Shown: piece by piece, positions 19,258 through 57,625 of the stretch
How positions within the stretch are numbered: the first letter of the stretch is position 1
Layout of the letters: each line of letters starts with the position of its first letter
From: an uncultured Anaerolineae bacterium
GTDB lineage: Bacteria > Chloroflexota > Anaerolineae > VGOG01
Direction of reading: 5' to 3'
Length of the DNA stretch: 64,000 nt
Assembly: GCA_964390805.1 (NCBI GenBank)
Contig: CAYMKL010000006.1
Coordinates: 7,895-71,894 of the forward strand
Program-made: the position numbers and the translations under genes
Notes under the pieces: model-generated
What the model was told of the DNA's origin: nothing
The model's input: the letters and a program-made list of their open reading frames with translations, nothing else
Databases searched by the model: none

Positions 19258-19327
19258 GATGTATTTCTTGTCCCCTGTAAAAGCATAACTAAGTGACAAT
19301 ACCTGCACAATCTCTAGGAGGAGAGAG

Positions 19328-19954: not shown

Positions 19955-22781
19955 GCTGCTTGACAGTCTCCTGGCTCAACCGGACACTGAGGCCAGGGTC
20001 GCTTTCCTACGCCAACGGGGGCAGTACGACACTGAGACGCTGGAAGCATTAGCCAAGGCTGGCGATGCTTTGGTGCGGGATGATCCCAGCCGTGGCACCC
20101 TGTTGGCAGAGGTTGTGGTCGAGCTGGCTGAGGCGCTGCCAGCTCCTTTAGCTGCTGCCCAGGCCCGTTACCTCCGCGCCCAGGCCCACGCCCTAGCTGG
20201 CGAGTGGACTCAAGCCCTGCCCCTCATTACTGCCGCTCGTGAGGGCTTCCTGGCTGCTGGCCGTCTGCAGGAGGCCATCCGTACCCGCGTGGGCGAGATG
20301 CACGCCCTCGCCGGCCTGGGCCGCTACCCAGAGGCACTGGCTGCTGGAGAGCGAGCCCTCGCTGAGACAGCAGATCCCTTTATAACCGCCCTAGTGGTTC
20401 AAAACCAAGGGCTGATCTACAATGTAATGGGACGCTACAGCGATGCCCTGGCCGCCTTCGACCGTGCTGCCGCCGGCTATGCCGCATTGGATCAAAGCGA
20501 GCGGCTCGGCCACGTCCACAACAACCGCGGCGTGACGCTCCTCAGTTTGGGCCGAGGGGACGAGACTGTCCAGGCCTTCCAGGAAGCAGAGGCCATCTTT
20601 GCTGCTAGGGGCCTAACCCTCCTCACCGCTCAAGCCCAGGCCAATCGCGGCGCAGCCCTATCGCTGATGGGCGACCATCGCACCGCGCTGGAAGCCTTCG
20701 AGACAGCACGGTGGACCTTTGAAGCACTGGAGCCAAGCGTCGAGCGTGGCACTTTGGACCTGGACACCGCCACCGCGTATCTGGCTCTCAATCTCTATCC
20801 GGAGGCACTGGCTACCTGCGACGAGGCATTGGCTAGCTTCCGTGCCGCCTCCATGCCATATGAGCAAGGCCAAGCTCTGGTCCGTCGGGCGGCGGCCCTG
20901 ACCGCCTTGGGGCAGCCAGCCGCAGCCGAAACAGCCCTGGCGGAGGCGGAAACCATCTTCCGCGAGCTGGGCAACGAACCCTGGCTGGCCATCGTCTGGC
21001 TGGAACAGGCCGCCCTTTGGGAGTCAATGGAGCGCGGCTATGAAGCCTTAACTGTTGCCCGGAAAACTCTGGCCCTCTGCGAACGCCTGGGCCAGGCTGT
21101 GCAAGGCACATACGCCCACCTGCGTCTGGCCGACCTGCTGGCCAAGCAGGACCACGAGACTGCACTGGCTCACTTGCAGAAAGCCCTGACCCAGGCCGAG
21201 AAGTTGGCCTTGCCCCAACTGCGCTATCGGGCCCACGCCCGACTGGGCCGGCTGTATCGGCTCCAGGAGCGAACTGACCAGGCCCTGTACCATCTAACGC
21301 AGGCAATAGAGGAAATCGAGCGCCTGCGGGCCACGCTGCCCCAAGAGACGCTGCGTACCGCCTTTCTGCGGGACAAACTGGCCCCTTACGAGAACCTGAT
21401 ACAGTTGTACCTGGCCATCGGTGATGAGAACGGATTGCGACAGGCCTTCGCCGTGGCCGAGCGAGCCCGGTCGAGAGCCCTATTGGACCTGCTGGCCGTT
21501 AGCATTGATGCCCGGCTCCAGGCCGCTGAAGCTGACGAGGCCCAGGCGACTTTGCGGCAGCAGCTGGAGGCAATGCGGGCCGACCTGGACCTGATTTACA
21601 ACGAGCTGTTGGCTGCCGATACCGAGACCGCAAAGGACGATCAGCGCGGCCCGCGCCTGGCCCGGCTCCGAGGTCAGGCGCACCAGCACGAGCAGGAGAT
21701 CACCCGCCTGCGCCTGCGCCTGGAGGCCGTTGGCCCTGGTTACCTCGACGTGGCTCGCCCGCTCTCGCTGGAAGCGATCCAGGCCACGCTGCCCCAACGG
21801 GCACGCCTGCTGGCTTACTACATCGTCGGCGACGAACTACTGGCCTTCGTCGTCAGCCCTCGTTCAGACATGAGGGTTTACCGTCGGCTGACCCCATCCA
21901 GCGAACTGGCGCCAGCCCTGGACCGGCTGGGGATGCAGTGGAATCGCTTTCGCCTCGGTGACGAGTACGTGGCCCGCCATCGGGCGGCCTTGGAGCAGAG
22001 CGCCCATGCTGCCCTGGCCGATCTCTACGACCAGTTGGTGCGTCCACTGGCCAATGACCTGGATGGCGAGCAACTGATCATCGTCCCCTATGGACCACTG
22101 CATGGGGTTCCCTTCCATGCCTTGTACGACGGCCAGAGCTATCTCATCGAGCGCTACGAGATTTCCTATGCTACCAGCGCCACCGTCATGGCGCGCTGCC
22201 AGGCCCGGCCGCATCAGCCGCTGGAACAGGCGCTAGTGGTCGGCGTCCCCGATGCCGGCATCCCTTACGTCGCCCAGGAGGCAGAGACCGTGGCAGCCCT
22301 GCTCCCCCAGGCGCAGCTTCTGCAGGGGAAAGAAGCTACCATACCTGCGCTGCGGGCCACGGCGCCGGGTCGGGATCTCCTTCACCTGGCCTGTCATGGG
22401 CTGTTCCGGACCGATAGCCCTCTTTTCTCCGCTCTACGGCTGGGGGACGGCTGGTTGACCGTGGCCGAGGCAGCCGAGTTGGAGCTGCAGGCCGGGTTGG
22501 TGACTCTCAGCGCTTGTGAATCCGGCCGCAGTCGGGTAGTAGAAGGCGATGAATTACTGGGATTGACGCGAGCCTTTCTGGGGAGTGGGGCAGCGTCGCT
22601 GATCGTCAGCCTGTGGCTGGTCAACGACGCCAGCACTGCCCGCCTGATGGAGGAATTCTATCGCTGTTTGCAGGCCGGTCAATCCAAAGCCGCGGCCCTC
22701 CGGGCCGCCCAACGGGCACTGCTGGCCACCAAGAGCCATCCTTATTACTGGGCCCCGTTCGTACTGGTGGGACAGAGTTGA
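19905..22781 (+). CDS. TPR-repeat protein with a C-terminal CHAT (caspase-like) protease domain
   Basis: About 600 aa of TPR-like helical repeats. The C-terminal CHAT motif has a His/Cys dyad (LHLACHGLF...LVTLSACESGRS). The 5' end overlaps the previous gene by 50 nt; the true start is uncertain (GTG or TTG). Confidence 0.8.
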   Translation: MKRGRSSLSALTSPLAKLLDSLLAQPDTEARVAFLRQRGQYDTETLEALAKAGDALVRDDPSRGTLLAEVVVELAEALPAPLAAAQARYLRAQAHALAGEWTQALPLITAAREGFLAAGRLQEAIRTRVGEMHALAGLGRYPEALAAGERALAETADPFITALVVQNQGLIYNVMGRYSDALAAFDRAAAGYAALDQSERLGHVHNNRGVTLLSLGRGDETVQAFQEAEAIFAARGLTLLTAQAQANRGAALSLMGDHRTALEAFETARWTFEALEPSVERGTLDLDTATAYLALNLYPEALATCDEALASFRAASMPYEQGQALVRRAAALTALGQPAAAETALAEAETIFRELGNEPWLAIVWLEQAALWESMERGYEALTVARKTLALCERLGQAVQGTYAHLRLADLLAKQDHETALAHLQKALTQAEKLALPQLRYRAHARLGRLYRLQERTDQALYHLTQAIEEIERLRATLPQETLRTAFLRDKLAPYENLIQLYLAIGDENGLRQAFAVAERARSRALLDLLAVSIDARLQAAEADEAQATLRQQLEAMRADLDLIYNELLAADTETAKDDQRGPRLARLRGQAHQHEQEITRLRLRLEAVGPGYLDVARPLSLEAIQATLPQRARLLAYYIVGDELLAFVVSPRSDMRVYRRLTPSSELAPALDRLGMQWNRFRLGDEYVARHRAALEQSAHAALADLYDQLVRPLANDLDGEQLIIVPYGPLHGVPFHALYDGQSYLIERYEISYATSATVMARCQARPHQPLEQALVVGVPDAGIPYVAQEAETVAALLPQAQLLQGKEATIPALRATAPGRDLLHLACHGLFRTDSPLFSALRLGDGWLTVAEAAELELQAGLVTLSACESGRSRVVEGDELLGLTRAFLGSGAASLIVSLWLVNDASTARLMEEFYRCLQAGQSKAAALRAAQRALLATKSHPYYWAPFVLVGQS

Positions 22782-41747: not shown

Positions 41748-41784
41748 CTTCATCACCATCTCCCTCCCTGGCAACGGCTGAGTA

Positions 41785-41836
41785 GAGACGAACAAGCAAA
41801 TCAGCGAACGACGCCCTTCGCCATTCGCTGATTTGT
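41785..41836 (-). terminator. Conserved 52-54 nt hairpin element (stem CAAATCAGCGAA/TTCGCTGATTTG), copy 1. Probably a minus-strand terminator.
   Basis: Nearly identical to 43970-44023, and both follow stops of minus-strand genes. Confidence 0.45.
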
Positions 41837-41950: not shown

Positions 41951-42787
41951 TCAATCTTTGAGGTGATACTCTCTTATCCGTCCGTCTTTCCAGAGAAGCA
42001 GGTCCGCGGAGAGGGCGTGATCGCGCTCCGCTGCGTCGCGACGTACCTGGCCAGCGATAGCGGCTACCTGGGCCGGGTCGCGGTCGCTGAAGGCGATCAG
42101 AAAATCGCGATTAGGGATGCCGATCAACATCCGACCGGGGATGCGTCCGGCCCAGGTGTCCATCAGATCGGGCAGCAGGACGCGCGTGGCTGCGTAGCCG
42201 TCGTGCGTATCGCACACCACCATGGTCTTGTCGCGCAGCCCGTGCGTGTGATAGACGTCGCTAGTGGTGCGCAGGCGCAGGTTATGAAGCGCGTATTCGT
42301 GGATCATGTCGAAGGTGGTCTCCGGGCCAGCCATCATTTCGGCCAGCATGTTTTCGTTCACGTAAGCGCGGTAGTCAGGGAAATCGAACACGTAGCTGAT
42401 GACCAGCCCAGCTACGAACGGGCGATGCACTGGTGGGAGAGCACCTCGCTGCTGCATCTGTTCCAGCAATGCAGGCCGGTTGAGCATCGGCAGCAGCGCT
42501 TCGGCGGCCTCTTCTTCGGTCGGAGGTGGAGGGGTTGGGGGCACCTTGCCCAGGGCGTTCAGGTGCACCTGCACGATGTCATCCAGACGGTGAGGAGAGT
42601 TCAGGTAGGCCTGGTAGCTGATATCCAGCTTGCAGCGCATCGGCTCATCGTGCACCACGATGTGCAGCACGCCCTCTTCGCGTTTGACCACCTCGTAGCC
42701 AGCCTGCCGCGTGGCCGCCTCCATGTGGGCGGTGAAGGCTTCCAGATCAAGCAGTTTGTTCCTTCGGCGTCGTTTTCGTTTGGCCAT
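41951..42787 (-). CDS. Hypothetical protein (DUF1444/UPF0354-like?), basic N-terminus
   Basis: Clean ORF with RBS GAGGAAACACC. The family assignment is tentative and from memory. Confidence 0.45.
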   Translation of the reverse strand: MAKRKRRRRNKLLDLEAFTAHMEAATRQAGYEVVKREEGVLHIVVHDEPMRCKLDISYQAYLNSPHRLDDIVQVHLNALGKVPPTPPPPTEEEAAEALLPMLNRPALLEQMQQRGALPPVHRPFVAGLVISYVFDFPDYRAYVNENMLAEMMAGPETTFDMIHEYALHNLRLRTTSDVYHTHGLRDKTMVVCDTHDGYAATRVLLPDLMDTWAGRIPGRMLIGIPNRDFLIAFSDRDPAQVAAIAGQVRRDAAERDHALSADLLLWKDGRIREYHLKD

Positions 42788-42828
42788 GGTGTTTCCTCGG
42801 ATTCCGCTGGGGTAACTGCTCAAGCCGT

Positions 42829-42917
42829 GTCATTGCGAGGCGTTTCTTTGCCGAAGCAATCTCCCGCCAGCGAATTGGGGATCGCTTCGTCGCAAAACCC
42901 GCTCCTCGCGATGACAC
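42829..42917. repeat. MITE-like element (copy B) with GTCATTGCGAGG...CCTCGCGATGAC termini
   Basis: gtcattgcgaggcgtttctttgccgaagcaatctcccgcc...ggggatcgcttcgtcgcaaaacccgctcctcgcgatgacac. Confidence 0.6.
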
Positions 42918-43103
42918 CTACGAGCGCACCTTATACACGTTCAGCCCCACTTTCACATCAGAATGGGGCTCAGGTAGCGGCTGGTTGCCTTTGGTAGAGG
43001 CAATGATGATGCTCTTGCCCGAGGCGCTTGGCCCAGCCGTCTTGCTCAGGTCCACCTTGATGGTGAGGATGCTGCCCTCGATCTTCATTTCGACGTTGAC
43101 CAT
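42918..43103 (-). CDS. Small hypothetical protein (61 aa)
   Basis: ORF only, with weak resemblance to swapped-hairpin small proteins. Its stop abuts the MITE-like element. Confidence 0.3.
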   Translation of the reverse strand: MVNVEMKIEGSILTIKVDLSKTAGPSASGKSIIIASTKGNQPLPEPHSDVKVGLNVYKVRS

Positions 43104-43139
43104 TGGAGTGTTCTCCTCTCTGGGATTATGGTCAGAACT

Positions 43140-43604
43140 CTACCTCTCTGCTTCTTCTGTGCTCAGTTGGCTCAGCAGACTGCGAACCGTGAGCAGAAAC
43201 TCACCCGGTTGCTGCACGGTGATGATGTGGGCAGGCGGAGAGTAATGGCGTACATTGAAAGTCAGGAGATAGGGACATCTCTCCCGCAGCGCCGCAACCA
43301 GGATGGGCAAGTCCTTGGAGTCGGCTTGGTCGGCATGAGGGAGGAGATCATCTGGCTCCGGGTCAGGCACCACGCGCAGACAGCGGCTGACCAACAGATG
43401 GAGCTCAGGCAGCTTCGTGGGTAACTTGTCGGCCAGATTGCGCTCCACCTCGGTCACGGCCTGCTGAGAGGTGACGCACTCGATCAGGGTGATTTCGCCC
43501 ATGCGCAGCACAACGTGACTGGCGCCATACTCAGAGGGTGAAGCTGCTCCAGCGAAGATGACGTCGGCATCCAGGAAGACGGTTGGCTTACGTATCCTGG
43601 CCAC
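43140..43604 (-). CDS. PIN-domain ribonuclease (VapC-like toxin)
   Basis: The N-terminus VFLDADVIF carries an acidic Asp. Overall PIN fold pattern. Overlaps the upstream antitoxin gene by 17 nt. Confidence 0.65.
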   Translation of the reverse strand: MARIRKPTVFLDADVIFAGAASPSEYGASHVVLRMGEITLIECVTSQQAVTEVERNLADKLPTKLPELHLLVSRCLRVVPDPEPDDLLPHADQADSKDLPILVAALRERCPYLLTFNVRHYSPPAHIITVQQPGEFLLTVRSLLSQLSTEEAER

Positions 43605-43863
43605 CGTACTTCTCCGCCGTGTACCGCTCGCGTTGCTCGCGCAGCCCTTTGAGCATCTCCTCCATGCTCAGTCCCGCTTCGATGCGCGCCCGTTCGATCT
43701 CCCGTGCCAGCTCGGGCACCATGGGCGTCATCGGTGTCAGCACGAAGATGCCGTCCAGGTCCACAAGGCGGAAGGTGTCACCCGGCTTGATGCTGTAACG
43801 CTCGCGCAACCGAGCGGGTAAGGTCAGCGTACCCCGCTGACGCACCTGTACTGTGATGTCCAT
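43588..43863 (-). CDS. AbrB/MazE/SpoVT-type antitoxin (swapped-hairpin DNA-binding domain)
   Basis: MDITVQVRQRGTLTLPARLRERYSIKPGDTFRLVDLDG. The start at 43863 is internal to the longer annotated ORF. Confidence 0.6.
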   Translation of the reverse strand: MDITVQVRQRGTLTLPARLRERYSIKPGDTFRLVDLDGIFVLTPMTPMVPELAREIERARIEAGLSMEEMLKGLREQRERYTAEKYGGQDT

Positions 43864-43969
43864 AGAATCGTCTCCCGTCCGCATTTCTGCTTCATCTGAT
43901 TTCCAGCACAATCTGATTATACACCAGAGAGACGTTGGAGTCAAGTGCTACTCCGGCATCGTCCGCTGG

Positions 43970-44023
43970 CAGAGACAAACAAACAAATCAGCGAACGACG
44001 CCCTTTGCCATTCGCTGATTTGG
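43970..44023 (-). terminator. Conserved 54-nt hairpin element, copy 2, downstream of the TIR-STAND gene
   Basis: agagacaaacaaacaaatcagcgaacgacgccctttgccattcgctgatttgg. On the minus strand the stem is followed by GTTTGTTTG. Confidence 0.5.
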
Positions 44024-44039
44024 GGATGCTGGGCGCTGC

Positions 44040-46922
44040 TCACAGCGACTCCTCCAACCGGGCCAGCAGAGCACCGGCCTCGTCGTAGGCCACGCGGTAG
44101 GTGTAATCCGGCGGGCCGTCGCAGGTGGCCAAGTGGCGGGCCTGCTGCGCATGGGCCAACGCCGCCTCTCGATCCCCCTTCTCCAGCGCCATCTCCGCCA
44201 GGAAGAGGTGCACGTCGGCGCCTTGCAGCACGTACTCGCTGCGTTCGGTGATGATCAATGCTTCCCCGGCCAGGCGCAGCGCCTCGTCGGTATGCCCCTG
44301 GTCTCGGCGCAGACGAGCCAGGTCCAGCAGGATGTATGCCTCGTGATCCACCATGTTGATGCCCCGGCAGCGGGTCAGGGCCTCGGTCAGGTGGCGGTCG
44401 GCATCGTCGAGGCTTCGCCCTGAGCCTGTCGAAGGGTCGCCGCTGGCCCAGTGCGCCGCGCCCAGCAGCCAGTGGGCGCACACGTAGTCCCGCTCGTACG
44501 GGGACCAGGTTCGGGCCGTCTCGTCCGCCAGTTGCAGCGCCCTCCGGGCGGCGGCCAGTCCCTCAGCGTGCAGGGGCGCAGCGTGCTCTGCCCCTACAGC
44601 CCGCACCCACAGCAGGGCGCGCAGCGTCCGATAGGCCCAGTTCACAGATCCGTAATTTGTCTGTCCTGGTCCCAGTTCGTCGAACACCTTTTGGGCCGTC
44701 AGTAACTCCTTCTCCGCGTCGGCCCACGCGCCACAGTAGGCCAGCAGCCGCCCCAGTTCCGAATGCCCAATCGCCTCGTTGAACTCATCCTCAATCTCCC
44801 GACAGAGGGCAATACGGCGGCGCAGGCTGGCCTCTGCCGCCCGCAGCGCACCGATGACCAATTGCTGCGTTGCCAGGTTCCCCAGGTCGATGGCGAGATT
44901 CCGCCTATCACCCTCGCTTTCATCCAGGTCCGCCGAAACTTGGAACAGTGGCACAGCACGACCTGGCTGTCCTGAGAGAGAGTGGGAGTTGGCCAGAGCA
45001 CATGCAGCCCATGACTGGGAACGCTTGGTTTCCAAGCACGGCGGTTGATCTTCTCCCCCAGGGAATAAGACACTTAGCAGTTCAATCTGCAATTGATAGC
45101 TGCCAAGCTGATAATAGGCAGCGCTGTGAAGACGATTCTGAAAGAGCCTGAACGCCTCGTCGTAGAACCCAGCGCGCACGGTGTGGTGGTAGAGTTCGAT
45201 CACCGGCGCCAGGTCGTCCAGGGAGTGCACCTGGTCCGGCGGGGGCACGGCGGCGAAATAGTCCCGCAATTGGCCGTGGGCGGCCTGCCGCTCGGGATCG
45301 CCCAGCCGGTCGTACGCGTAACGTCGCACAATGGGGTGCAGGTCGTAGCGTCCTTTCTGGCGGTCGTGGTGCAGCAGGCCACGGGCCACCAGGTCGCGCA
45401 GGTCAGCATCCAATCCGTAGGGGCGGGGCAACCCCGCCCCTTGCGGCGATGGGAGCGATGGGGGTGATGGGGCCGAGGGAACCTCGCCCCTACCGATGGC
45501 GGCGATGGCCTCGTAGCCCACCGCGCCGCGGAAGCAGGCGATGCGACTGAGCAACCGCTGGCGTCCGGGCGTCAGGTTGCTGTAGGCCTGCCCCAGCACG
45601 TGGTGCTGGCGCTGCTTCAAATTGCCGCTCACGTCCAACCGCCGGGCGGCGGCCACGTCGCCGGGTTGCTGTGGATCACGCACGGTGAGACCGGCCAACA
45701 AGCGCAGGCTCAGCGGGTGGTAGCCGTAGGGGGCGCAGGCCGCCTGGATCTCGGCCCGCGCGCCGCGGATGCCCTGGGCACGGAAGAAGGCCACCGCGTC
45801 GGCCTTCCCCATCTGGGTCAGCTCCTCCTCGCAGCAGCCCTGCAGCAGGTCGCCCCCGTGGACTTGCAGGATGCGGGGCAGCAGCCGGGTGGTTAGGAGG
45901 ACCTTGCCGCGGATGCCCGGCAGGGTGGCCACGCCGCGCAGGAGGTGCTCGGCGAGGGGAGAGATGCAGTCGCGCTGGCCCTCACCCCTCCCCCCGTCCC
46001 CCTCCCCTCTCCCAACATCAGGAGAGGAGAGGGGGTGGTCGCCGAGGTAGGCGGCGTTCATGCTGCTGTAGGCACGCAGGGCGCGCTCGAAGCCGTCCAG
46101 GATGAGCAGCGTGCCGGGCTGGCGCAGCAGCCGCAGCAACTCGTCGGCCTGCTGGCGGGGGCCCAGGCGGGACGCACCTCGCAGGTGCATTGCACTCTGC
46201 AGGTAGCCCAACGCCTCCCGCAGGAAGGAGTCGAACTCCCGCTCGTCGTAGAAGCCCCACCAGACGACGCGAGGCCAGGCGGCGGGGTTCACGTCGTGCA
46301 GCAGCCAGTGCCAGGCCAGGGCGGACTTGCCGAAGCCACCCAGCGCACGCAGCACCAGCAGGGAGTGACCGCTGTCGGCGTGGAGCCAGCGGCTCAGCAT
46401 CTCCCGCTCGGCCAGCCGCCCGGTGAAGTTGGGCGGCATGGGGTAGGGATGCTTCAGGAACCATTCCTCCCGGCGGGGTGGCTCTGGTGCTTCCTGCATG
46501 GGCGGCGCGCCCAAGGCAGTAAGGAGCTGCGTCCAGGCGAGGTCGCGTTCCTCCGGGTCGGTGAAGTCCACGTAGGTCAGGTAGCGGATACGTAGCGGCA
46601 GATCGCACCTTTCCTTCAGCAGCGGGATCAACCGGCGCTCACGGTTGGCCGGATCGAGCACCTGGAGCATCAACGTCTCGAACTCGGTCCAGGCGCTGGT
46701 CAGGTAGGCGGGCGTCAGTACGAGTAGCGTCTTGCGACTGGTCAGCACGGCCCGCTCCATCTCGGTGACGCTGGGTGCGCCGGGCTCGAAATCGCGGTAG
46801 TCCATGATGACCTCCAACCCCGCTGCCTCCAGAAACGGTAGTAGCGTTCCCCGTACCCAAGCTTTGTCAGCGTGGCTGTAGGAGATAAAGACGTCGTAGC
46901 GGTATTCTTCCTGTTCGCTCAT
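44040..46922 (-). CDS. TIR-domain / NB-ARC (STAND P-loop NTPase) / TPR-repeat protein, a candidate antiphage defence sensor-effector
   Basis: N-terminal TIR (YDVFISYSHADKAWV...). Walker A LRALGGFGKSALAWHW with Walker B/NB-ARC features. C-terminal TPR-like repeats of about 350 aa. A low-complexity G/E/R-rich insert sits inside the NTPase. Confidence 0.85.
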   Translation of the reverse strand: MSEQEEYRYDVFISYSHADKAWVRGTLLPFLEAAGLEVIMDYRDFEPGAPSVTEMERAVLTSRKTLLVLTPAYLTSAWTEFETLMLQVLDPANRERRLIPLLKERCDLPLRIRYLTYVDFTDPEERDLAWTQLLTALGAPPMQEAPEPPRREEWFLKHPYPMPPNFTGRLAEREMLSRWLHADSGHSLLVLRALGGFGKSALAWHWLLHDVNPAAWPRVVWWGFYDEREFDSFLREALGYLQSAMHLRGASRLGPRQQADELLRLLRQPGTLLILDGFERALRAYSSMNAAYLGDHPLSSPDVGRGEGDGGRGEGQRDCISPLAEHLLRGVATLPGIRGKVLLTTRLLPRILQVHGGDLLQGCCEEELTQMGKADAVAFFRAQGIRGARAEIQAACAPYGYHPLSLRLLAGLTVRDPQQPGDVAAARRLDVSGNLKQRQHHVLGQAYSNLTPGRQRLLSRIACFRGAVGYEAIAAIGRGEVPSAPSPPSLPSPQGAGLPRPYGLDADLRDLVARGLLHHDRQKGRYDLHPIVRRYAYDRLGDPERQAAHGQLRDYFAAVPPPDQVHSLDDLAPVIELYHHTVRAGFYDEAFRLFQNRLHSAAYYQLGSYQLQIELLSVLFPGGEDQPPCLETKRSQSWAACALANSHSLSGQPGRAVPLFQVSADLDESEGDRRNLAIDLGNLATQQLVIGALRAAEASLRRRIALCREIEDEFNEAIGHSELGRLLAYCGAWADAEKELLTAQKVFDELGPGQTNYGSVNWAYRTLRALLWVRAVGAEHAAPLHAEGLAAARRALQLADETARTWSPYERDYVCAHWLLGAAHWASGDPSTGSGRSLDDADRHLTEALTRCRGINMVDHEAYILLDLARLRRDQGHTDEALRLAGEALIITERSEYVLQGADVHLFLAEMALEKGDREAALAHAQQARHLATCDGPPDYTYRVAYDEAGALLARLEESL

Positions 46923-46984
46923 CGTCCCTCCTATCGGCGCGGCATCGGGACTCAATCGCCAGGCGGCTACCACCTGGCGACAAT

Positions 46985-48367
46985 TTACCGGGCACAGCGG
47001 AAGCCGACGTCGTCGTTGGCCAGTTCAACGGCGCTAGCGCTCCGCTCGGTGGTGCGCACCAGATTCTGGTCGCTGAACCAGCCGCCCCCTCGGATCACCC
47101 TGTACTTCTCTCCAAAATAAGGGGAATAGAAGTCACCGCCAGGATAGGCCTTAAACCAGTCGCTCGTCCACTCGGATACGTTGCCCGCCATGTCCATCGC
47201 ACCATAAGGACTGGCCCCGGCAGGGAAGCTCCCTACAGCGGTGGTCCCGCGATGACCTGCCTCCTTCGCGTTGGCCCTGGCTGCATCCCACTGGTTGCCC
47301 CAGGGATAGCTGCGCGCATCGGTGCCCCGCGCCGCCTTTTCCCACTCCGCTTCGGTAGGTAACCTCTTCCCCGCCCACTGGCAAAAAGCTTTGGCATCGT
47401 TCCAGCTTACTTTCACCACGGGATGCTGAGCCTTGTCCTTAGCATAGTACCGCCAGGACGTGTCACCTGCCTTCTCCGCATCGGTGACATAGCCTGTTTC
47501 CGCGACAAACTTCTCAAAGTCCTCGTTGGTTACCTCAAGCTTGTCCATCTCAAAGCCATCAACGAAGACCGCATGAGGCGGCCTCTCGTCCTCGACATCG
47601 CTGCCCATGGTGAACTCTCCAGCAGGGATGGCGATCATGGCCGCCTCTACCGCGGGGCGCGGAGTCGGCGGGGTCGAGGTTGCCGTCGCCCTGACTTCAG
47701 TTGCGGTGCTGGTGGGCGCTATCGTCCCACCCTGGGGGATGATCAACTCCTGGTCTATCTGCAGCCGATTGGGATCTGATATAGCGTTGACCTCTTGGAG
47801 AGCCTCGACTGTAACCCCGTACTGCTTGGCGATGGCACCCAGCGTGTCGCCGGCCTCAACCACGTGGATCACAGGCGCGGTGGTCGGTGAGACGGAGGTT
47901 GATGTGACTGTAGCCTCTACCTGCCTCTGAGGAATGACGAGCTCCTGGTCTATCTGCAAACGTGTGGGATCGGAGATAGCATTGACTTCCTGGAGGGCTT
48001 CCACGGTAACTCCGAACTCCTTGGCGATGGCGCCCAAAGTATCTCCAGCCTGAACCACATAGATCACCGGCGTAGGCGTAGGCAAGGCAGGCGTCAGAGT
48101 GGGCGGTGGGAGCGTTGCTGTCGCTTCGTACATATGTTGATGAAGCGGCGGCATAAGGTGCATGGGAGTCGTCGTTACAGGGGCAAGAGTCCTTTCAGGC
48201 GGCATCGGCGTGGTAGCGGTAGCCGTCAGCGGGATAAGGGTTGGAGTTTCCTGCACAGGTTGTGATGTTGGCGTAGCTCGTGCAAGCGTTGGAATTCGCG
48301 AACAGGCTGTTGTGGCGAGGACAAACCCCATCGCCACCAGCAAGGCCCCTAGCTTGTTTCTTATCAT
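46985..48367 (-). CDS. Lipoprotein with two LysM domains and a C-terminal FGE-sulfatase (SUMF1-like) domain
   Basis: Lipobox LATTAC. Two LysM repeats (YVVQAGDTLGAIAKEFGVTVEALQEVNAISDP and HVVEAGDTLGAIAKQYGVTVEALQEVNAISDP). The FGE-sulfatase signature ends in RGGGWFSD and GFRCAR. Confidence 0.8.
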   Translation of the reverse strand: MIRNKLGALLVAMGFVLATTACSRIPTLARATPTSQPVQETPTLIPLTATATTPMPPERTLAPVTTTPMHLMPPLHQHMYEATATLPPPTLTPALPTPTPVIYVVQAGDTLGAIAKEFGVTVEALQEVNAISDPTRLQIDQELVIPQRQVEATVTSTSVSPTTAPVIHVVEAGDTLGAIAKQYGVTVEALQEVNAISDPNRLQIDQELIIPQGGTIAPTSTATEVRATATSTPPTPRPAVEAAMIAIPAGEFTMGSDVEDERPPHAVFVDGFEMDKLEVTNEDFEKFVAETGYVTDAEKAGDTSWRYYAKDKAQHPVVKVSWNDAKAFCQWAGKRLPTEAEWEKAARGTDARSYPWGNQWDAARANAKEAGHRGTTAVGSFPAGASPYGAMDMAGNVSEWTSDWFKAYPGGDFYSPYFGEKYRVIRGGGWFSDQNLVRTTERSASAVELANDDVGFRCAR

Positions 48368-48400
48368 CGCAAAACCTCCATTTCGTGTGGCGGGCAAGTT

Positions 48401-48904
48401 TCAGCCACGCTTCTCTGCTCCCCCTTCAACCCTATTCAAGTCCACATGCAAAAAGGGGTTGTCGGTCATCAGGCCCTCTGCTTTAGCTGCACGCAACATC
48501 TGATCGTCGCCGCTGACGAAGACCAGTATGATCTCCTGATCGGCCAGGTTGCGAGCAGCTTCCAACCCGGTAGCCAGGTGTACTGCATCGCAGCCTTTCA
48601 GTGGATGTGCTCGGGGCAAAAGGGCGGCACGGTCAATGAGCAGTCGGGTCACAGCCAAGAGTTGATAGGCACCTGTTTCTACGTCATTGGCGAAGTCTCG
48701 ATACGCATGTTGACCCTGCCGTTTGGTCAATTTGCCCACCCTGATAGAGATGGCAATGGCGGCTGACACCTCCACGATGGTCATCTCGCTGGTCAGGAAT
48801 ACGTTTTCCGGGTCGGCTGCCAGCAAACGCACCCAGGCACTACCTGGCTCGTCTACGTACCGCTTGACCACCACACTGGAATCCCAATAATAGAAGAAGC
48901 CCAT
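48401..48904 (-). CDS. PIN-domain protein (VapC-like)
   Basis: WDSSVVVKRYVDE and PIN pattern. Confidence 0.7.
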   Translation of the reverse strand: MGFFYYWDSSVVVKRYVDEPGSAWVRLLAADPENVFLTSEMTIVEVSAAIAISIRVGKLTKRQGQHAYRDFANDVETGAYQLLAVTRLLIDRAALLPRAHPLKGCDAVHLATGLEAARNLADQEIILVFVSGDDQMLRAAKAEGLMTDNPFLHVDLNRVEGGAEKRG

Positions 48905-48915
48905 GGCACAATCTC

Positions 48916-49239
48916 CTAGCGACGGCTCGCAAGAATGATTTGCGATAACGGCGGGTCCAGACGCAAGGCTCTTAACTCAGCCTGAATTTCCCGGCGCTCT
49001 TCTTCGGGAATCTGACGCCACTCCTCTGCTGCAGCCAGGATGTGAGGCGGGGGATCCACCAGCAAGCCGGCCCGGCGCAGCGCAGCTAAACCCCGCTCCT
49101 TCTCGCCCAGTTCTGCTTCCGCAACCTCAGTCGCTGGAGTCACTCCTTGCCCTATCGCGATTTCCAGCCAGTGAACTCCCGTCTCCAGGCGTTCCACTCG
49201 CTTGACCAGTTCCTTAAACTGAGCTTCTAAGACAGCCAT
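48916..49239 (-). CDS. Putative antitoxin partner of the PIN gene (small helical protein)
   Basis: RBS AAGGAGG precedes MAVLEAQFKELVKRVERLE. Lies immediately upstream of the PIN gene. The longer 208-aa ORF seems over-extended. Confidence 0.4.
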   Translation of the reverse strand: MAVLEAQFKELVKRVERLETGVHWLEIAIGQGVTPATEVAEAELGEKERGLAALRRAGLLVDPPPHILAAAEEWRQIPEEERREIQAELRALRLDPPLSQIILASRR

Positions 49240-49679
49240 ATCACTTCCTCCTTCACCGTATTTTGAGCATCGGCACCGGACATTCCACCAGTGATAACCC
49301 CTCGTACAGGATCGCCCTGGTGTTGACACTTTCATTCTGTCAACGAATGAAGCAACGAATTTGAATCGTCTGGTGCAGTGACTCCTTGGAGAACACGTCG
49401 TATCGCTCGCGGATCTGAGCGATTTCCCACTCCGCCAAGCGGATCTCTTTTTCGATGAAGGCAGTAACCCTTTTCGAATGAGTTCGGATTCCGAGATCGC
49501 CAACGTGTTGCTCAATTCGAGAGTCAACGCTTGAACATCCATTTAACACCTCCTGACTTGATCTCTGAGTAGGCCAGGTCACTGCGCCCGCACAAGAAGT
49601 ATACCATAGCTCTATCAAGCCTGCAAGTCCCCAATCGCCTCCAGCACCAGTTATGACAGGCTACTCCCCCACCTCGATA

Positions 49680-52780: not shown

Positions 52781-53017
52781 ATTCAGTACATCGCAATTGC
52801 GAAGATGAGCTGGCTCCAATGCCCGCGTTTCGGCGGCCCTTCGGCCGTAAGCGGAGCGACGCTCAGGACAGGCGTGGGAGCCGCCTCTGCTTATAGCTGG
52901 CGAGCTAGTAGATTATAGCACAACGAGCCGGGGTAGCAAACTCCAGGAAGTCGGCTTGCCTGTTCCTTGACAGGTAAGCCGACTTTGGCTTTCTGGCAGG
53001 CCAGGCGGAACATCTCT

Positions 53018-53046
53018 TTGACAAAATCCCGGCTACGTGCTATCAT
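53018..53046 (+). promoter_or_regulatory. Candidate sigma70-type promoter (TTGACA-17 nt-TATCAT) for the mttB-family operon
   Basis: TTGACA at 53018-53023 and TATCAT at 53041-53046, about 45 nt upstream of the RBS and ATG at 53093. An upstream hairpin at 52955-52992 may terminate plsY. Confidence 0.45.
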
Positions 53047-53092
53047 TACGCCGCTCATCAAGGCTTGTCCAAAAAACGCAAAGGAGAGAAGA

Positions 53093-54550
53093 ATGTTCAG
53101 GCCCAAGCTAGAACTACTCGACAGAGAAACCATTGAGCGCATCCTGGCGGAAGCCCACGAGTTGCTGTGGGACCCCGGCGTGCGCATCCATAGCGACGAG
53201 GCCCTCAAGCTGGTCGCTGATGCTGGAGCCACTGTTGATTTCGACAGCAAAGTGGCTCGGATCCCAGCCGAACTAGTTGACAAGGCTGTGGAAACGGTGC
53301 CCTCCTCGTTTCACCTCCACGATTTCGAGGGGAACCCTGTAGTACACTATGGCGACGATGACGTGCAGTTTGACCCAGGCTCGGCAGCCATCGAATTTTT
53401 GGATTATGGAGCGACCCAGTCGCGCACACCAATCACGGCCGACTTTGTCGCTTATATCAAGTTGGCTGACATGCTGCCAGAGCTAGACGCGGTCAGCACG
53501 GCTCTGGTCTGCTCGGACGTGCCGGAGAGCATGGCTGATCTCTATCGCCTCTACCTGGTGCTCAGGTACGCCAGGAAGCCCGTCATCACCGGCGCCTTTG
53601 CCGTTGAGACTTTGGCAATCATGAAAGACCTGCTCGTCGCTGTGGTCGGCAGCGACGAGGCGCTGGCCGCCAAGCCCATCGCGGTGTTCGACGTCTGCCC
53701 CTCGCCCCCCCTGCTGTGGAGCGAGATCACCTGCCAGAACATGATTGACTGCGCCCGCGCGGGTATCCCAGCCGAGCTGGTCTCCATGCCCCTGGCCGGG
53801 GCGACGGGCCCCGCTACCCTGGTTGGCTCGGTGGTGCAGCACGCCGCCGAGTGCCTGAGCGGCATCACCATTCACCAACTGGCCAAAGCCGGTTCTCCCA
53901 TCGTTTGGGGTGGCTCACCTGCCGCCTTCGATATGCGCACGGGGACACCCCCCATGGGGGCTATCGAGACCATGATGATAGATTGTGCTTATGCTCAGGT
54001 CGGCAAGTACCTGGGACTGCCCACCCACGCCTACATGGGCATGAGCGACGCCAAGATCGTAGATGCGCAGGCCGGCTTCGAGTCCGGCATCGGCAACATC
54101 ATGGCAGCCCTGGCCGGGGTGAACATGGTTTCTGGGGCCGGCATGATGGACTTCGAAAGCTGTTTCAGCCTGGAGAAGCTGGTGATTGATAACGAGCTCA
54201 TCGGCATGGCACGCCGCCTGGTGCGGGGCATTGACGCCTCAGAGGATCCCCTGGCCACCGTCATCATGCGCCAGGTCGGCCATGCGGGCAACTTCCTGGC
54301 CACCAAACACACCCGCCGCTGGTTCAAGCGAGAGCAGTTTATCCCCTCCCCCGTCATTGACCGCGACTACCGTCAGGCCTGGGAGAACAAGGGTGCTAAG
54401 GACATCGTGCAGCGAGCGCATGAACGAGTTGAGCAGTTGGTAGCAGCCTACCAACCCAAGCCCCTGCCCAAAGGGGTGGAGCAGGAGTTGGTGGCTATCA
54501 CCCTGCGGACAGCCAAAGCCCAGGGGCTAGAGAGATTACCGCCACTGTGA
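53093..54550 (+). CDS. MttB-superfamily (trimethylamine methyltransferase family) non-pyrrolysine methyltransferase, paralog 1
   Basis: The N-terminus MFRPKLELLDRETIERILAEAHELLWDPGVRIH is a typical MttB family start. TIM-barrel length, with no in-frame amber codon. Confidence 0.85.
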   Translation: MFRPKLELLDRETIERILAEAHELLWDPGVRIHSDEALKLVADAGATVDFDSKVARIPAELVDKAVETVPSSFHLHDFEGNPVVHYGDDDVQFDPGSAAIEFLDYGATQSRTPITADFVAYIKLADMLPELDAVSTALVCSDVPESMADLYRLYLVLRYARKPVITGAFAVETLAIMKDLLVAVVGSDEALAAKPIAVFDVCPSPPLLWSEITCQNMIDCARAGIPAELVSMPLAGATGPATLVGSVVQHAAECLSGITIHQLAKAGSPIVWGGSPAAFDMRTGTPPMGAIETMMIDCAYAQVGKYLGLPTHAYMGMSDAKIVDAQAGFESGIGNIMAALAGVNMVSGAGMMDFESCFSLEKLVIDNELIGMARRLVRGIDASEDPLATVIMRQVGHAGNFLATKHTRRWFKREQFIPSPVIDRDYRQAWENKGAKDIVQRAHERVEQLVAAYQPKPLPKGVEQELVAITLRTAKAQGLERLPPL

Positions 54551-54578
54551 TCTATTGCGGGAAACGAGTAACGAGGGG

Positions 54579-56018
54579 ATGAGTCAAATTGAACGCCCCA
54601 AACTGCGCCTGGAGGTGCTGAGCCAGGACGAGGTGCGACGCATCCACCAGGCCAGCCTGGAGGTCATCAAGACGGTTGGGGTGCGCTTTCCTTCGGACTG
54701 GGCCCTTGATATTCTGGAGGAGACGGGAGCGATAGTGGATCGAGAAAGCCAGATCGCCCGCCTCCCCAGCCAGCTCATTGTCGAGGCTTTGACCAACGCG
54801 CCGCCATCGTATGTGCTCTGCGCCCGCGATCCCGCCCTGGATCTGCCCCTGGACGGTGAGCACTCCTATCTGTCCACCGACGGCTGTGGCGTGGAGGTCA
54901 TTGACATCGAGACGAGAGAGCGACGGCGCTCGACCAGGCAGGACGTGGCCGAGTCAGCACTGGTGGCCGATTACCTGCCTCAGATCGCTTTCTACTGGCC
55001 TATAGTAGCCGCCCAGGACTGTCCCCCGCAAACGCGCTCTTTGCACGAACTGGAGGCCGCCTGGAACAATACCACCAAGCACGTCCAGACCGAGTGCGTC
55101 ATCACGGCCAGGGAAGCCGAAGCGGCCATTGAGATGGCTGCGGCCATCGTCGGCGGGCGCGACGAGCTGAGAAAACGCCCCATCCTCTCCATCATGCAGT
55201 GCACCATCAGCCCCCTAGGGCAGGATGGGGGCAGCCTGGAGGCCGCTCTGGTTGCTGCCGCAGCGGGCCTACCAGTGGGCTTCATGACCATGGCCAGTTG
55301 CTGCTCCACCGGGCCAGCCACGCTGGCCGGCAACCTGGTGGTGGGCAACGCCGAGGTGATCGCCGCCTCCGCCCTCATTGAGCTGGCCTACCCAGGCACG
55401 CCCATTTTCTACGCCGCCGCTCAGACGGCCATGGACCTCCGCACGGGGGCCTATACCGGTGGAGGGCCGGAGGACTACCTCTTCGGAGCAGCCACCAACC
55501 AACTGGCTGACTTCTACAGGATCCCCCTCTCCATGGGTGCCTTCGCCAGCGGCGCAAAAGAGCCCGACTGGCAAGCGGCGCTGGACAACGCCTTTGCCGG
55601 CCTGATGCCCGTCCTCAGCGGAGCCGACATGCTGACCGGTGCAGGCCTGCTCTATGGCTCGCGCATCCTCTCCTACGAGCAATTGCTCATGGATTGTGAG
55701 ATCTACGACCTTATCCAGGCCACAGCACGGGGCATCGAAGTAAGCGACGAGACCCTGGCTTTGGAGGTCATTAAGTCCGTGGGTGTGGGTGGACACTACC
55801 TGGACCAGACACACACACTGAAGCACATGAAGAAGCGATGGGTGCCAAGCCTGGTGGATCGCCGCTCCTATAGAGCCTGGGAGAAAGATGACCGGCGAGG
55901 GGCGAGGGAGTGGGCCCACGAGAAAGCAAGGTGGATCCTGGCTAATCACCGCCCAGAGCTGTTGGAACCCAGGCTGCAGGAAGAACTATCCAAGATCATT
56001 GCTATCATGGAGAAGTAG
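54579..56018 (+). CDS. MttB-superfamily methyltransferase, paralog 2
   Basis: ERPKLRLEVLSQDEVRRIHQASLEVIKTVGVRF. Lies 28 nt downstream of paralog 1. Confidence 0.85.
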   Translation: MSQIERPKLRLEVLSQDEVRRIHQASLEVIKTVGVRFPSDWALDILEETGAIVDRESQIARLPSQLIVEALTNAPPSYVLCARDPALDLPLDGEHSYLSTDGCGVEVIDIETRERRRSTRQDVAESALVADYLPQIAFYWPIVAAQDCPPQTRSLHELEAAWNNTTKHVQTECVITAREAEAAIEMAAAIVGGRDELRKRPILSIMQCTISPLGQDGGSLEAALVAAAAGLPVGFMTMASCCSTGPATLAGNLVVGNAEVIAASALIELAYPGTPIFYAAAQTAMDLRTGAYTGGGPEDYLFGAATNQLADFYRIPLSMGAFASGAKEPDWQAALDNAFAGLMPVLSGADMLTGAGLLYGSRILSYEQLLMDCEIYDLIQATARGIEVSDETLALEVIKSVGVGGHYLDQTHTLKHMKKRWVPSLVDRRSYRAWEKDDRRGAREWAHEKARWILANHRPELLEPRLQEELSKIIAIMEK

Positions 56019-56023
56019 GGAGT

Positions 56024-56138
56024 CTTTGGGGATTTACGTGAATAGCAGGCCGGAGTCCTCAACTTGTTGAGGTTTGCCGCACCGCAACCTCAACAAGTTG
56101 AGGACTCCGACACCATGACCCCGCGAAATCCCAAAGAG
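56024..56138 (+). repeat. Large nested palindrome: a 21-bp perfect inner stem (GGAGTCCTCAACTTGTTGAGG/CCTCAACAAGTTGAGGACTCC) within outer arms CTTTGGGGATTT/AAATCCCAAAGAG
   Basis: Read directly from the sequence at 56052-56072 and 56088-56108 (inner stem) and 56024-56035 and 56126-56138 (outer arms). Confidence 0.8.
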
Positions 56139-56161
56139 CCTGAAGAGCAAGGAGCTAGACC

Positions 56162-57625
56162 ATGCGACCCAAGCTGGAACTCCTGGAACATGAGCTAGTG
56201 GAACGCATCGTGGGCGAGGCCTACGAGCTGTTGTGGGACCCCGGTGTGCTGGTGCACCGAGAGCGCGCTCTGACAATCCTGGCCGAGGGCGGGGCCACGG
56301 TGGACTTCGAGAAGAAGACCGCCAAGATACCCCAGCATAAGATTGACGAGGCCCTCAAGACTGCCCCGGCCAGCGTGGATGTCTACGACCTGAAGGGAGA
56401 GCTGCGCCTGCGCCTGGGGCAGGACAACACGTATTTCTACCCCGGCGCTACCGCTCTGCAGATCATAGACCCCGTCACCGACGAGTACCGTCCTCCCGTC
56501 ACCGAAGACCTGGTGCGCTTCATCCAGATGGTGGAGGGCTTGCCCCAGATTGACGCCCAGGCTGGCTCGCTGCTGTGCGCCGATGTGCCCAAGATGGTTT
56601 CGGATAGTTATCGTTATTACCTGATGCTGCTCTATGGCACGAAACCCCTCTGCGGCGGGGCCTTCAGCATCGAGGGCTGGTATCCCATGAAGGACCTGCT
56701 GGCGGCCTACTTCGGCAGCGAGGAGGCCATCGCCGCCAAGCCCGTCAATACTATGGCCATCTGTCCATCGCCGCCCCTTCTTTGGAGCGACATCACTTGT
56801 CAGAACCTCATGGACTGCGCCAAATGGGGCCTGCCGGCGGTGCTCATCTCCATGCCCCTGTCTGGAGCCACCGCCCCAGTGACCATCGCGGGTACGGTGG
56901 TGCAACACGCTGCCGAATCCCTGAGCGGCGTAGTCATCCACCAGTTAGTGAACCCGGGTGCACCCATCATCTACGGCAGCTCGCCAGCTATGTTTGACAT
57001 GCGTGAGGGCACCACGCCCATGGGATCCATCGAAACTGTCATGATCAACTGTGCCAACGCTCAGGTAGGCAAATACCTGAACCTGCCCACTCACGGCTAC
57101 GTGGGCTTGAGCGACGCCAAGATCGTGGACGCGCAGGCCGGCCTGGAGTCGGCGATGGGGTCGGTTCTAGGGGCCCTGGCTGGAATCAACCTCATCTGCG
57201 GGGCCGGCATGTCCGACTTCGAGAGCGGGTCGAGCTTCGAGAAGGTGGTCATAGACGCCGAGGTGATCGGCATGGCCAAACGACTGCTCGCTGGAGTCGA
57301 AGCCCGTGAGGAGAGCCTGGCTACGACCCTGATGCGGGAAGTGGGACACCAGGGCAATTTCCTGGCCACGGAGCACACTCGTAGATGGTTCAGAGAGGAG
57401 CAGTACATTCCCTCAGCGGTCATTGACCGCGCCTCCCAAAGCATTTGGGAGAATCGCGGGAACAAGAACGCCGTGCAGCGCGCCCGCGAACGGGCCGTGG
57501 CCCTGATCGCCGAGTACCAGCCCCCTGAAGTGCCCGCTGAGGTCCGTAAGGAGTTGAAGGCCGTTATGACTAGGGCTGCGAAGCAGTATGGTGTGGATGA
57601 ATTGCCGCCCCTGCCAGAGTTGTAG
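56162..57625 (+). CDS. MttB-superfamily methyltransferase, paralog 3
   Basis: MRPKLELLEHELVERIVGEAYELLWDPGVLVH. RBS AAGGAG. Confidence 0.85.
   Translation: MRPKLELLEHELVERIVGEAYELLWDPGVLVHRERALTILAEGGATVDFEKKTAKIPQHKIDEALKTAPASVDVYDLKGELRLRLGQDNTYFYPGATALQIIDPVTDEYRPPVTEDLVRFIQMVEGLPQIDAQAGSLLCADVPKMVSDSYRYYLMLLYGTKPLCGGAFSIEGWYPMKDLLAAYFGSEEAIAAKPVNTMAICPSPPLLWSDITCQNLMDCAKWGLPAVLISMPLSGATAPVTIAGTVVQHAAESLSGVVIHQLVNPGAPIIYGSSPAMFDMREGTTPMGSIETVMINCANAQVGKYLNLPTHGYVGLSDAKIVDAQAGLESAMGSVLGALAGINLICGAGMSDFESGSSFEKVVIDAEVIGMAKRLLAGVEAREESLATTLMREVGHQGNFLATEHTRRWFREEQYIPSAVIDRASQSIWENRGNKNAVQRARERAVALIAEYQPPEVPAEVRKELKAVMTRAAKQYGVDELPPLPEL

Follow-up and report, generated by a model that had tools for sequence, protein, structure and literature searches.

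The class of proteins that joins an AP-ATPase/NB-ARC module to TPRs and carries swapped effectors, found in bacteria of complex lifestyle, is known from computational descriptions that go back to Leipe et al. (2004) (as cited in PMC8195603) and include those of Kaur et al. (2020, 2021). The exchange of effectors and of EAD adaptors is a published signature of such conflict STANDs (Kaur et al., PMC8195603; PMC13581612), and the Avs proteins show the same pattern of effector swapping (Lee et al., 2026; PMC13581612). One Avs effector, DUF4062, has been shown experimentally to deplete NAD+ (bioRxiv 10.64898/2026.09.04.749371). Here, we analysed a stretch of 64,000 nucleotides (the window) of contig CAYMKL010000006.1 from an uncultured Anaerolineae bacterium, in which one gene encodes a 960-amino-acid protein with a TIR domain, an NB-ARC-like STAND NTPase and a TPR solenoid (TIR-STAND; Table 1). 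The class is thus already known from computational work, and we found no description of this conserved family in the literature. We favour, with some reserve, the reading that the product is an Avs-/NLR-like single-chain receptor, which on binding its ligand would use a TIR NADase to bring about arrest or death of the infected cell.

The open reading frames (ORFs) that the original prediction had placed at 43140-49240 are all present at those positions, and all lie on the minus strand. For the 960-residue protein the preferred start is the Met at 46922, giving the N-terminus MSEQEEYRYDVFISYS, in agreement with the N-termini of its homologues; a database record (P0001) holds a protein identical to the window product. 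The first domain is a TIR domain, as had been proposed: Pfam TIR_2 matches with an E-value of 1e-24 (87.8 bits, the cutoff being 28), Pfam TIR with 8.9e-08. It holds the boxes typical of TLRs, namely YDVFISYS, RDFxPG as box 2 and AW..LL as box 3, with an invariant RD.F..G core. The glutamate that would be catalytic in an NADase TIR is also present. It is E82 in the WxxxE motif, found in 30 of the 32 homologues aligned, and W78 of the same motif is found in 32/32. In a phmmer search of the PDB, E82 aligns with the W...E of TLR-type TIRs, and the best relatives of known structure are animal proteins (Hydra TRR-2, TLR15/2, TLR1, TLR6, MyD88 and TIRAP; 1e-12 to 1e-9), the bacterial TIR structures being far weaker (PdTIR, 5e-4; BtpA-like, 0.08; AbTir, 0.2). 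It should be noted that two TIR subtypes, differing over residues ~46-110, occur on near-identical STAND-TPR chassis (P0003 and P0083 versus the other sequences of alignment A1). P0003 has the N-terminal 45 residues of the window protein and its exact GRGEGDGGRGEGQRD loop, yet it carries the other TIR core, a pattern that suggests recombination within the effector domain.

The TIR domain is followed by a complete series of STAND motifs: the invariant lead-in HPYPMPPNFTGR (residues 158-169), the Walker A motif GGFGKS (195-200), the Walker B motif LLILDGFER (272-280), the sensor-1 TTR (344-346), GYHPLSL with its GxP (400-406), CFR (463-465) and LHPIVRRYA, which contains the MHD-equivalent His (528-536). 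The P-loop named in the original prediction is therefore confirmed, and the set of P-loop, Walker B hhhhD, TTR, GxP and MHD-type His is found whole. Lys199, Ser200, Asp276, Glu279, Arg280, Arg346, His402, Pro403, His529 and Pro530 are invariant in 32/32 homologues, and in the flanking positions of the motifs conservation is either complete or no lower than 90%. The assignment to NB-ARC, which had also been proposed, was reached less directly. Pfam NB-ARC (PF00931) does not match the nucleotide-binding oligomerization module (NOD) of the window protein even at E<=1, the only matches being AAA_25 (0.0026) and NPHP3_N (0.13). In an alignment of NOD sequences that includes distant relatives (A3; n = 15 for the Pfam scan), NB-ARC matches 11/15 sequences, the best at 1e-08, and NACHT matches 3/15 weakly (E>=0.021). 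The profile built from this alignment retrieves from the PDB the archaeal protein PH0952 (6mfv; 2.9e-10), AfsR (8e-4) and the plant proteins ADR2 and ZAR1 (1e-3 to 5e-3). The NB-ARC assignment thus holds by transitive homology and by predicted fold, with no direct match to the hidden Markov model. On the other hand, the suggestion that a G/E/R-rich insert makes this protein an undescribed variant found no support. The segment in question, HPLSSPDVGRGEGDGGRGEGQRD at residues 296-318, has a column identity of 0.26, compared with 0.7-0.8 elsewhere, and a pLDDT below 50 in the AlphaFold2 model; among the 32 homologues its length varies widely, the shortest loops having a few residues and the longest several dozen. 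It is a hypervariable loop and not a feature of the family.

The C-terminal part is a helical repeat region, in which Pfam recognizes TPR_12 (1.9e-07). The AlphaFold2 model places the repeats at residues ~568-958, so that the predicted TPRs are real but span about 390 residues rather than about 350. The mean pLDDT of the model is 73.9, with high values in the TIR and in the TPRs (mostly above 85 in the latter) and low values at residues 284-320, 347-441 and 480-502. By Foldseek and phmmer, the TPR part resembles the TPRs of LGN/Pins, OGT and MalT domain III. When the model was compared with the PDB using Foldseek, 6mfv_A was the top match (4.6e-12), followed by TPRs of the LGN/Pins type, Avs3 (8dgc), RPP1, the TIR of TLR1 and MalT domain III.

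The strongest support for a sensor-effector protein of the NLR type, as originally predicted, comes from what replaces the TIR in relatives. We searched 1.84 billion cluster representatives with the STAND-TPR part alone (residues 151-960) and obtained 4,269 matches, 1,007 of them at E<=1e-30, in which the N-termini ahead of the conserved HPYP..FTGR lead-in vary widely. A Pfam census of 36 sequences with such variable N-termini gave enzymatic modules (DUF4062, TIR_2, Trypsin_2, Mrr_cat, HNH, CHAT, PGAP1/DUF676 hydrolases, Metallophos and GT4-conflict), adaptors (EAD1, EAD7 and bDLD1) and a DNA-binding domain (HTH_3); several additional N-termini were judged by eye to be transmembrane segments. 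Swapping of N-terminal modules, as read here from domain composition, is typical for immune or conflict sensors. Moreover, the NAD+-depleting DUF4062 alternates with the TIR on the same chassis, which lends support to the TIR as an NADase executioner. The family has the tripartite architecture of Avs proteins, with variable N-terminal effectors and a conserved sensor, and to this extent the Avs-type reading stands; membership of Avs1-5 does not, since none of the PADLOC AVAST I-V models matches and no solved Avs chain was retrieved in the PDB sequence and profile searches.

A TIR in this position could alternatively act as a signalling or scaffolding module that, once the protein has oligomerized, makes a small NAD-derived messenger or builds TIR-TIR assemblies. 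Effectors encoded separately, for instance small TIR or TIR-EAD7 proteins, would then be recruited in the manner of the Myddosome or of Thoeris. The three TLR-type boxes and the preference for animal over bacterial TIR structures described above would fit such a role. So would the EAD7 found at the N-terminus of some family members, and an extra TIR-containing ORF that a BLAST search with the TIR revealed beside the gene in 7/78 loci, six times immediately upstream and once downstream, including a TIR-EAD7 protein at locus L004. Against it, neither a second TIR nor an EAD nor a candidate downstream effector lies beside the gene in the window, and tblastn found no paralogue there; most loci have no partner gene; and the domains that replace the TIR include directly toxic ones (nucleases, proteases and the NIR NADase), which argues that the position holds an executioner. 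We judge a scaffolding role to be distinctly unlikely. The seven adjoining TIR ORFs include at least one full-length tandem paralogue, and another may be a split fragment of the gene itself. As a separate observation, the loci with an extra TIR are mostly cyanobacterial, and upstream TIR genes are seen in L004, L032, L035, L038 and L044. The L004 gene (7182-7874) encodes an adaptor-type TIR-EAD7 protein of 223-230 residues, that of L035 a TIR-only protein of 150 residues, and elsewhere the TIRs are C-terminal on proteins of 416-490 residues.

The family is large and conserved. A word-indexed protein search matched 1,157 proteins, and the best 120 of these are 57-79% identical to the window protein and full-length, save for a few with partial coverage. 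The homologues come from Chloroflexota, Planctomycetota, Verrucomicrobiota, Acidobacteriota, Cyanobacteria and other phyla. In a scan of ~185,000 genomes, one per species, relatives were found in 195, and Chloroflexota, Cyanobacteria, Planctomycetota and Acidobacteriota dominate the taxonomic range. Conservation is uniform along the protein (mean pairwise identity: TIR, 0.62; NOD, 0.66-0.74; TPRs, 0.53-0.70) and is broken only by three indel hotspots (residues 241-260, 296-318 and 481-503). The whole protein, including the sensor, is about 60% identical across phyla, which predicts a very conserved trigger. One full-length member, 58% identical, lies on a contig binned as archaeal (L020; DATKVG010000190.1, from a metagenome-assembled genome of Candidatus Bathyarchaeia archaeon); this may be either cross-domain transfer or a binning error. 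No full-length match was found on mobile elements, whether in 72,556 plasmids, in 50,697 phage records or in IMG/VR. The composition of the gene, with a GC content of 0.671 and a third-position GC content of 0.813 compared with window means of 0.604 and 0.732 (standard deviations 0.035 and 0.069), is high but within the range of the window and is a weak sign of recent transfer. A plasmid of Prosthecochloris aestuarii (NC_011061.1, 39798-40439) carries a gene annotated fxsT whose product is 30% identical (tblastn) to residues 5-203 of the query, a stretch that covers the TIR and runs into the NTPase. The FxsT proteins, which are TPR proteins of the FxSxx-COOH system, may on this basis be a related TIR/STAND/TPR lineage; no FxsT model of NCBIfam matches the 960-residue protein.

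This same conservation raises the question of whether the protein serves defence at all. It could be a switch for stress, development or kin recognition, in bacteria of complex lifestyle, that responds to an endogenous ligand and lowers NAD+ in a regulated way, or triggers a programmed cell death unrelated to phage. In favour of such a switch are the sensor, which is evenly and highly conserved from phylum to phylum, the frequent housekeeping surroundings, with no clear enrichment of known defence genes, the four phyla that dominate the range, the HTH N-termini of some relatives, reminiscent of regulatory STANDs, and the weak NCBIfam similarities of the protein to AfsR, NsdA and MalT. However, conflict systems are characterized by just such an exchange of effectors for nucleases, proteases and Death-like or EAD adaptors, tandem paralogues occur, and a patchy distribution over the species genomes combined with this degree of cross-phylum identity fits horizontally moving accessory genes. 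A role outside defence seems to us unlikely.

We then considered whether the gene belongs to a larger unit. The original prediction had described 43140-49240 as a defence-island-like block whose accessory genes support a defence role; in its fullest form, this would be one composite island or operon, with the PIN pairs and the LysM-FGE protein acting together with the TIR-STAND protein. The genes are indeed co-oriented with short gaps, so that the antitoxin-like ORF, the second PIN gene, the LysM-FGE gene and the TIR-STAND gene possibly form one transcript ending at 43971-44022, and FGE-sulfatase (`FGS') is known as a lectin-like sensor module fused to other STAND conflict proteins (PMC8195603; PMC13581612). 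The comparative context nevertheless largely refutes the idea. We clustered 723 neighbours from 78 non-redundant loci by greedy ORF calling and all-versus-all BLAST, and the sole recurrent neighbour is a tandem paralogue, in 7/78 loci. A census of 150 immediate neighbours at 76 loci gave six TIR, three caspase and two Fic proteins and scattered single PADLOC matches, the remainder being unrelated housekeeping enzymes, for example acetyl-CoA carboxylase, CTP synthase and enzymes of histidine biosynthesis; PIN, AbrB, LysM and FGE are absent from its recurrent families. No synteny was found between the window and its closest relatives. In the PADLOC and NCBIfam scans, made on the nine ORFs in 41951-49618, PADLOC matched the 960-residue protein through TIR-domain models only and flagged none of the other genes of the block. 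In addition, a signal sequence would place the LysM-FGE protein outside the cytoplasm, and the AbrB-PIN_3 pair lies beyond the terminator-like hairpin at 43971-44022 with a promoter-like site of its own. A composite island is accordingly very improbable. The family has no obligatory partner gene, and since the comparative context shows no conserved partner, the functional unit would be the single TIR-STAND gene and the block a local chance juxtaposition, with the PIN/antitoxin pairs and the LysM-FGE protein as independent neighbours. More generally, co-located toxin-antitoxin modules alone do not make a defence island.

Several findings weigh against a receptor with a TIR NADase directed at infection. 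The Walker B motif is DGFE and not DD/DE, and the AlphaFold2 confidence is low across residues 347-441. Known defence genes do not recur beside the homologues, many of which sit amid housekeeping genes, and the sensor, with a pairwise identity of 53-70% from one phylum to another, is conserved to a degree that is unusual in a receptor engaged in an arms race. The literature holds no experimental work that we could find on any family member. As for the effector, the TIR most resembles the scaffold-type TIRs of animals (TLR, MyD88 and TIRAP). TLR-type TIRs bear a Glu at the position that aligns with E82 and are not known NADases, so that E82 is necessary but not sufficient for NADase activity. 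A BLASTP comparison with the TIR of SARM1 (approximate query sequence) gave 2e-07 overall, with the alphaC region gapped and the WxxxE motifs out of register; it thus supplies no register with E642 of SARM1, and the equivalence of E82 rests on the motif. The composition of the gene, with a GC content of 0.671 and a third-position GC content of 0.813 compared with window means of 0.604 and 0.732 (standard deviations 0.035 and 0.069), is high but within the range of the window and is a weak sign of recent transfer.

We nevertheless retain the single-chain receptor as the preferred reading, and infer from it the following course from ligand to outcome. At rest, the protein would be a monomer with ADP bound to its NB-ARC-type STAND module, which the TPR solenoid keeps autoinhibited, as in PH0952. 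The sensor would then bind its ligand, in all likelihood a conserved protein that an invading phage or another mobile element brings in, and binding would permit ATP-dependent oligomerization. The oligomer would cluster the N-terminal TIRs, and composite active sites formed around E82 would cleave NAD+, so that the infected cell stops growing or dies (abortive infection or programmed cell death). If this mechanism holds, the family adds one more sensor to the bacterial NLR-like receptors, from phyla that have been little sampled experimentally. Tests are feasible, because cultured cyanobacteria carry orthologues (for example Acaryochloris marina MBIC11017, at about 5,219,693-5,222,404 of NC_009925, Stenomitos frigidus ULC18, Nostoc mirabile CHAB5784 and Leptolyngbya sp. 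CCNP1308).

The most noteworthy features remain the cross-phylum conservation and the animal-like TIR. The latter is much nearer to the TIRs of animal TLRs and MyD88 than to the bacterial TIRs of known structure, which is of interest for the question of how animal TIR signalling arose. On a more far-reaching reading, the TIR of this unusually conserved cross-phylum TIR-NLR family would be the one in prokaryotes that comes nearest to the TLR/MyD88 type of animals, with boxes 1-3 in common, and the protein might either scaffold with accessory TIR or EAD7 proteins or sense a universally conserved, possibly endogenous, ligand. We hold this to be a long shot. If true, the family would represent a bacterial analogue or ancestor of Myddosome-type signalling rather than a simple phage-triggered NADase.

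The genes around the TIR-STAND gene can be described more briefly. The original prediction of a VapC-like PIN toxin with an AbrB-type antitoxin at 43140-43863 is upheld by Pfam PIN_3 (6.3e-11), by MazE_antitoxin (2.3e-05, exactly at the Pfam cutoff) and by NCBIfam AbrB (5.2e-05); the two genes overlap by 17 nt, as in a type II VapBC-like module, and are preceded by the promoter-like site (43916-43944), which matches at 11/12 positions. For the second pair proposed (48401-49239), the PIN gene is real (4.7e-07), whereas the 107-residue ORF upstream of it, which has a Shine-Dalgarno-like GGAGGAAG, matches no family of Pfam, NCBIfam or PADLOC. Between this pair and the TIR-STAND gene, the LysM-FGE protein matches FGE-sulfatase at 4.8e-65 and has two LysM domains (2.1e-32; Pfam); an internal 146-nt duplication in its gene corresponds to the LysM repeats, and its true start is likely to be the Met at 48367. 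Its adjacency to the TIR-STAND gene is probably coincidental, because the protein is extracytoplasmic and not conserved beside the homologues. Upstream of the second PIN pair, a frameshifted small ORF is plausible at 49340-49618, as had been noted, and its fused translation gives a match to RHH_3 that stays below the cutoff (0.0095). The dispersed repeats mentioned in the original prediction exist in the form of a 52-nt element, present in only two copies in the window that are 94% identical and form on the minus strand a 16-17-bp hairpin with a T-rich tail. The copy at 43971-44022 has a 16-bp stem (-31.8 kcal/mol, z = -3.05) and that at 41784-41835 a z of -4.4. Judging from the sequence, these elements look like a repeated intrinsic terminator or a REP-like element. 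They bracket a segment with the DUF1444 gene, a 61-residue ORF, PIN_3 and AbrB, but terminators after two co-oriented genes are a sufficient explanation, compared with borders of a mobile cassette. The block is flanked by ordinary genes (DUF6125, DUF1444 and ApbA/PanE in Pfam), and Rfam and tRNA scans gave no match inside it. Elsewhere in the window, an ORF that reads as an ECF-type sigma factor and a putative anti-sigma ORF are followed by a 958-residue TPR-CHAT protein (18706-22781; CHAT, a caspase-like protease, 4.9e-72), which is unrelated in sequence to the TIR-STAND gene and has, to judge by its domains, another architecture of the conflict or programmed-cell-death type. Finally, Rfam PYLIS_3, the pyrrolysine insertion element of mttB, matches at 54041-54140 (38.6 bits, gathering score 38) within three large co-oriented ORFs (52967-57625).

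Table 1. Positions in the window of the TIR-STAND gene, its domains and motifs, and the neighbouring features
Feature	Position	Strand	Basis or remark
Second 52-nt terminator-like hairpin, downstream of the DUF1444 gene	41784-41835	-	
PIN_3 (VapC-like) toxin, 154 aa	43140-43604	-	Pfam PIN_3 6.3e-11; neighbour
AbrB/MazE-type antitoxin, 91 aa	43588-43863	-	MazE_antitoxin 2.3e-05, AbrB 5.2e-05; neighbour, outside the STAND system
Intrinsic-terminator-like hairpin, 18 nt past the TIR-STAND stop codon	43971-44022	-	52-nt copy
Complete coding sequence, 960-aa TIR-STAND(NB-ARC-like)-TPR protein	44040-46922	-	Stop codon 44040-44042
TPR-type alpha-solenoid sensor, residues 561-960	44043-45242	-	Pfam TPR_12, AlphaFold2, Foldseek/phmmer
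Conserved C-terminal CDGPPDYTY motif of the TPR part	44097-44123	-	
STAND nucleotide-binding oligomerization module (NOD), residues 158-560	45243-46451	-	Invariant columns, PDB profile, Foldseek
G/E/R-rich segment HPLSSPDVGRGEGDGGRGEGQRD, residues 296-318, after Walker B	45969-46037	-	Hypervariable indel hotspot
TIR domain, residues 9-140	46503-46898	-	Pfam TIR_2 1e-24
WxxxE motif WTEFE (W78-T-E-F-E82)	46677-46691	-	E82 codon 46677-46679
BB-loop-like RDFEPG	46779-46796	-	TIR domain
LysM x2 and C-terminal FGE-sulfatase, secreted/lipoprotein-like, 470 aa	46985-48397	-	Neighbour
Second PIN-domain (VapC-like) protein, 167 aa	48401-48904	-	Pfam PIN (PF01850) 4.7e-07; neighbour
107-aa ORF directly upstream of the second PIN	48916-49239	-	Antitoxin-like by position only
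Two overlapping small frames with the look of a frameshifted RHH-type antitoxin remnant	49340-49618	-	Sequence reading

Compared with known systems, the first flanking pair follows the plan of VapBC type II modules, in which a small antitoxin gene, here of the AbrB/MazE fold, overlaps or adjoins the PIN toxin gene on its upstream side. The ORF upstream of the second PIN matches no antitoxin family. In other genomes the STAND gene is not accompanied by either pair. In PADLOC, bNACHT gave no match, and Thoeris is represented only by weak ThsB matches at the level of the TIR (6.8e-05 and weaker), with no ThsA in 41951-49618. With the TIRs of animal TLR, MyD88 and TIRAP, the window TIR has box 1, box 2 RDFxPG and box 3 in common, but these animal TIRs are scaffolds on membrane receptors or adaptors and are not carried by a STAND ATPase. 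The plant TIR-NLRs RPP1 and ROQ1 and the NB-ARC proteins ZAR1 and ADR2 follow the same TIR-NB-ARC-repeat logic and likewise have a WxxxE-type Glu; here, however, the sensor is made of TPRs and not of LRRs, there is no C-JID or EDS1 pathway, and the similarity is remote (1e-3 to 5e-3).

PH0952 from Pyrococcus horikoshii is the best match to the NOD and TPRs, both by profile and by fold, and has its domains in the same order as the window protein (NBD-HD-WHD-TPR), with TTR, GxP and His motifs in common. It differs in being archaeal and only ~14% identical, and the match begins at residue 11 of the 653-residue solved chain, which leaves no room in PH0952 for an N-terminal TIR or other effector. 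The Avs/AVAST systems (Avs1-5; Avs7-21, Lee et al., Nature 2026, PMC13581612) share with the window family the single chain with a variable effector, a STAND NTPase and a TPR-like sensor, and in both the effectors, among them TIR and the DUF4062/NIR NADase, are swapped on a constant sensor chassis. The likeness of the window protein to them is at the level of the fold only (Foldseek TM of 0.17 with Avs3), and its family shows no clear defence-island enrichment and has a far more conserved sensor (~60% identity across phyla). The EAD and Death-like-domain conflict systems (Kaur, Burroughs, Iyer and Aravind; eLife 2020, 2021) have the same phyletic bias towards `multicellular' bacteria, the same AP-ATPase-TPR cores and the same swapped modules, namely TIR, trypsin, restriction endonuclease/HNH, calcineurin-like phosphoesterase, caspase/CHAT, EAD1, EAD7, bDLD1 and GT4-conflict. 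The window protein differs from them in that Pfam finds no EAD or Death-like domain in it and its TIR is fused directly to the NTPase, whereas EAD7, EAD1 and bDLD1 are carried by its relatives.

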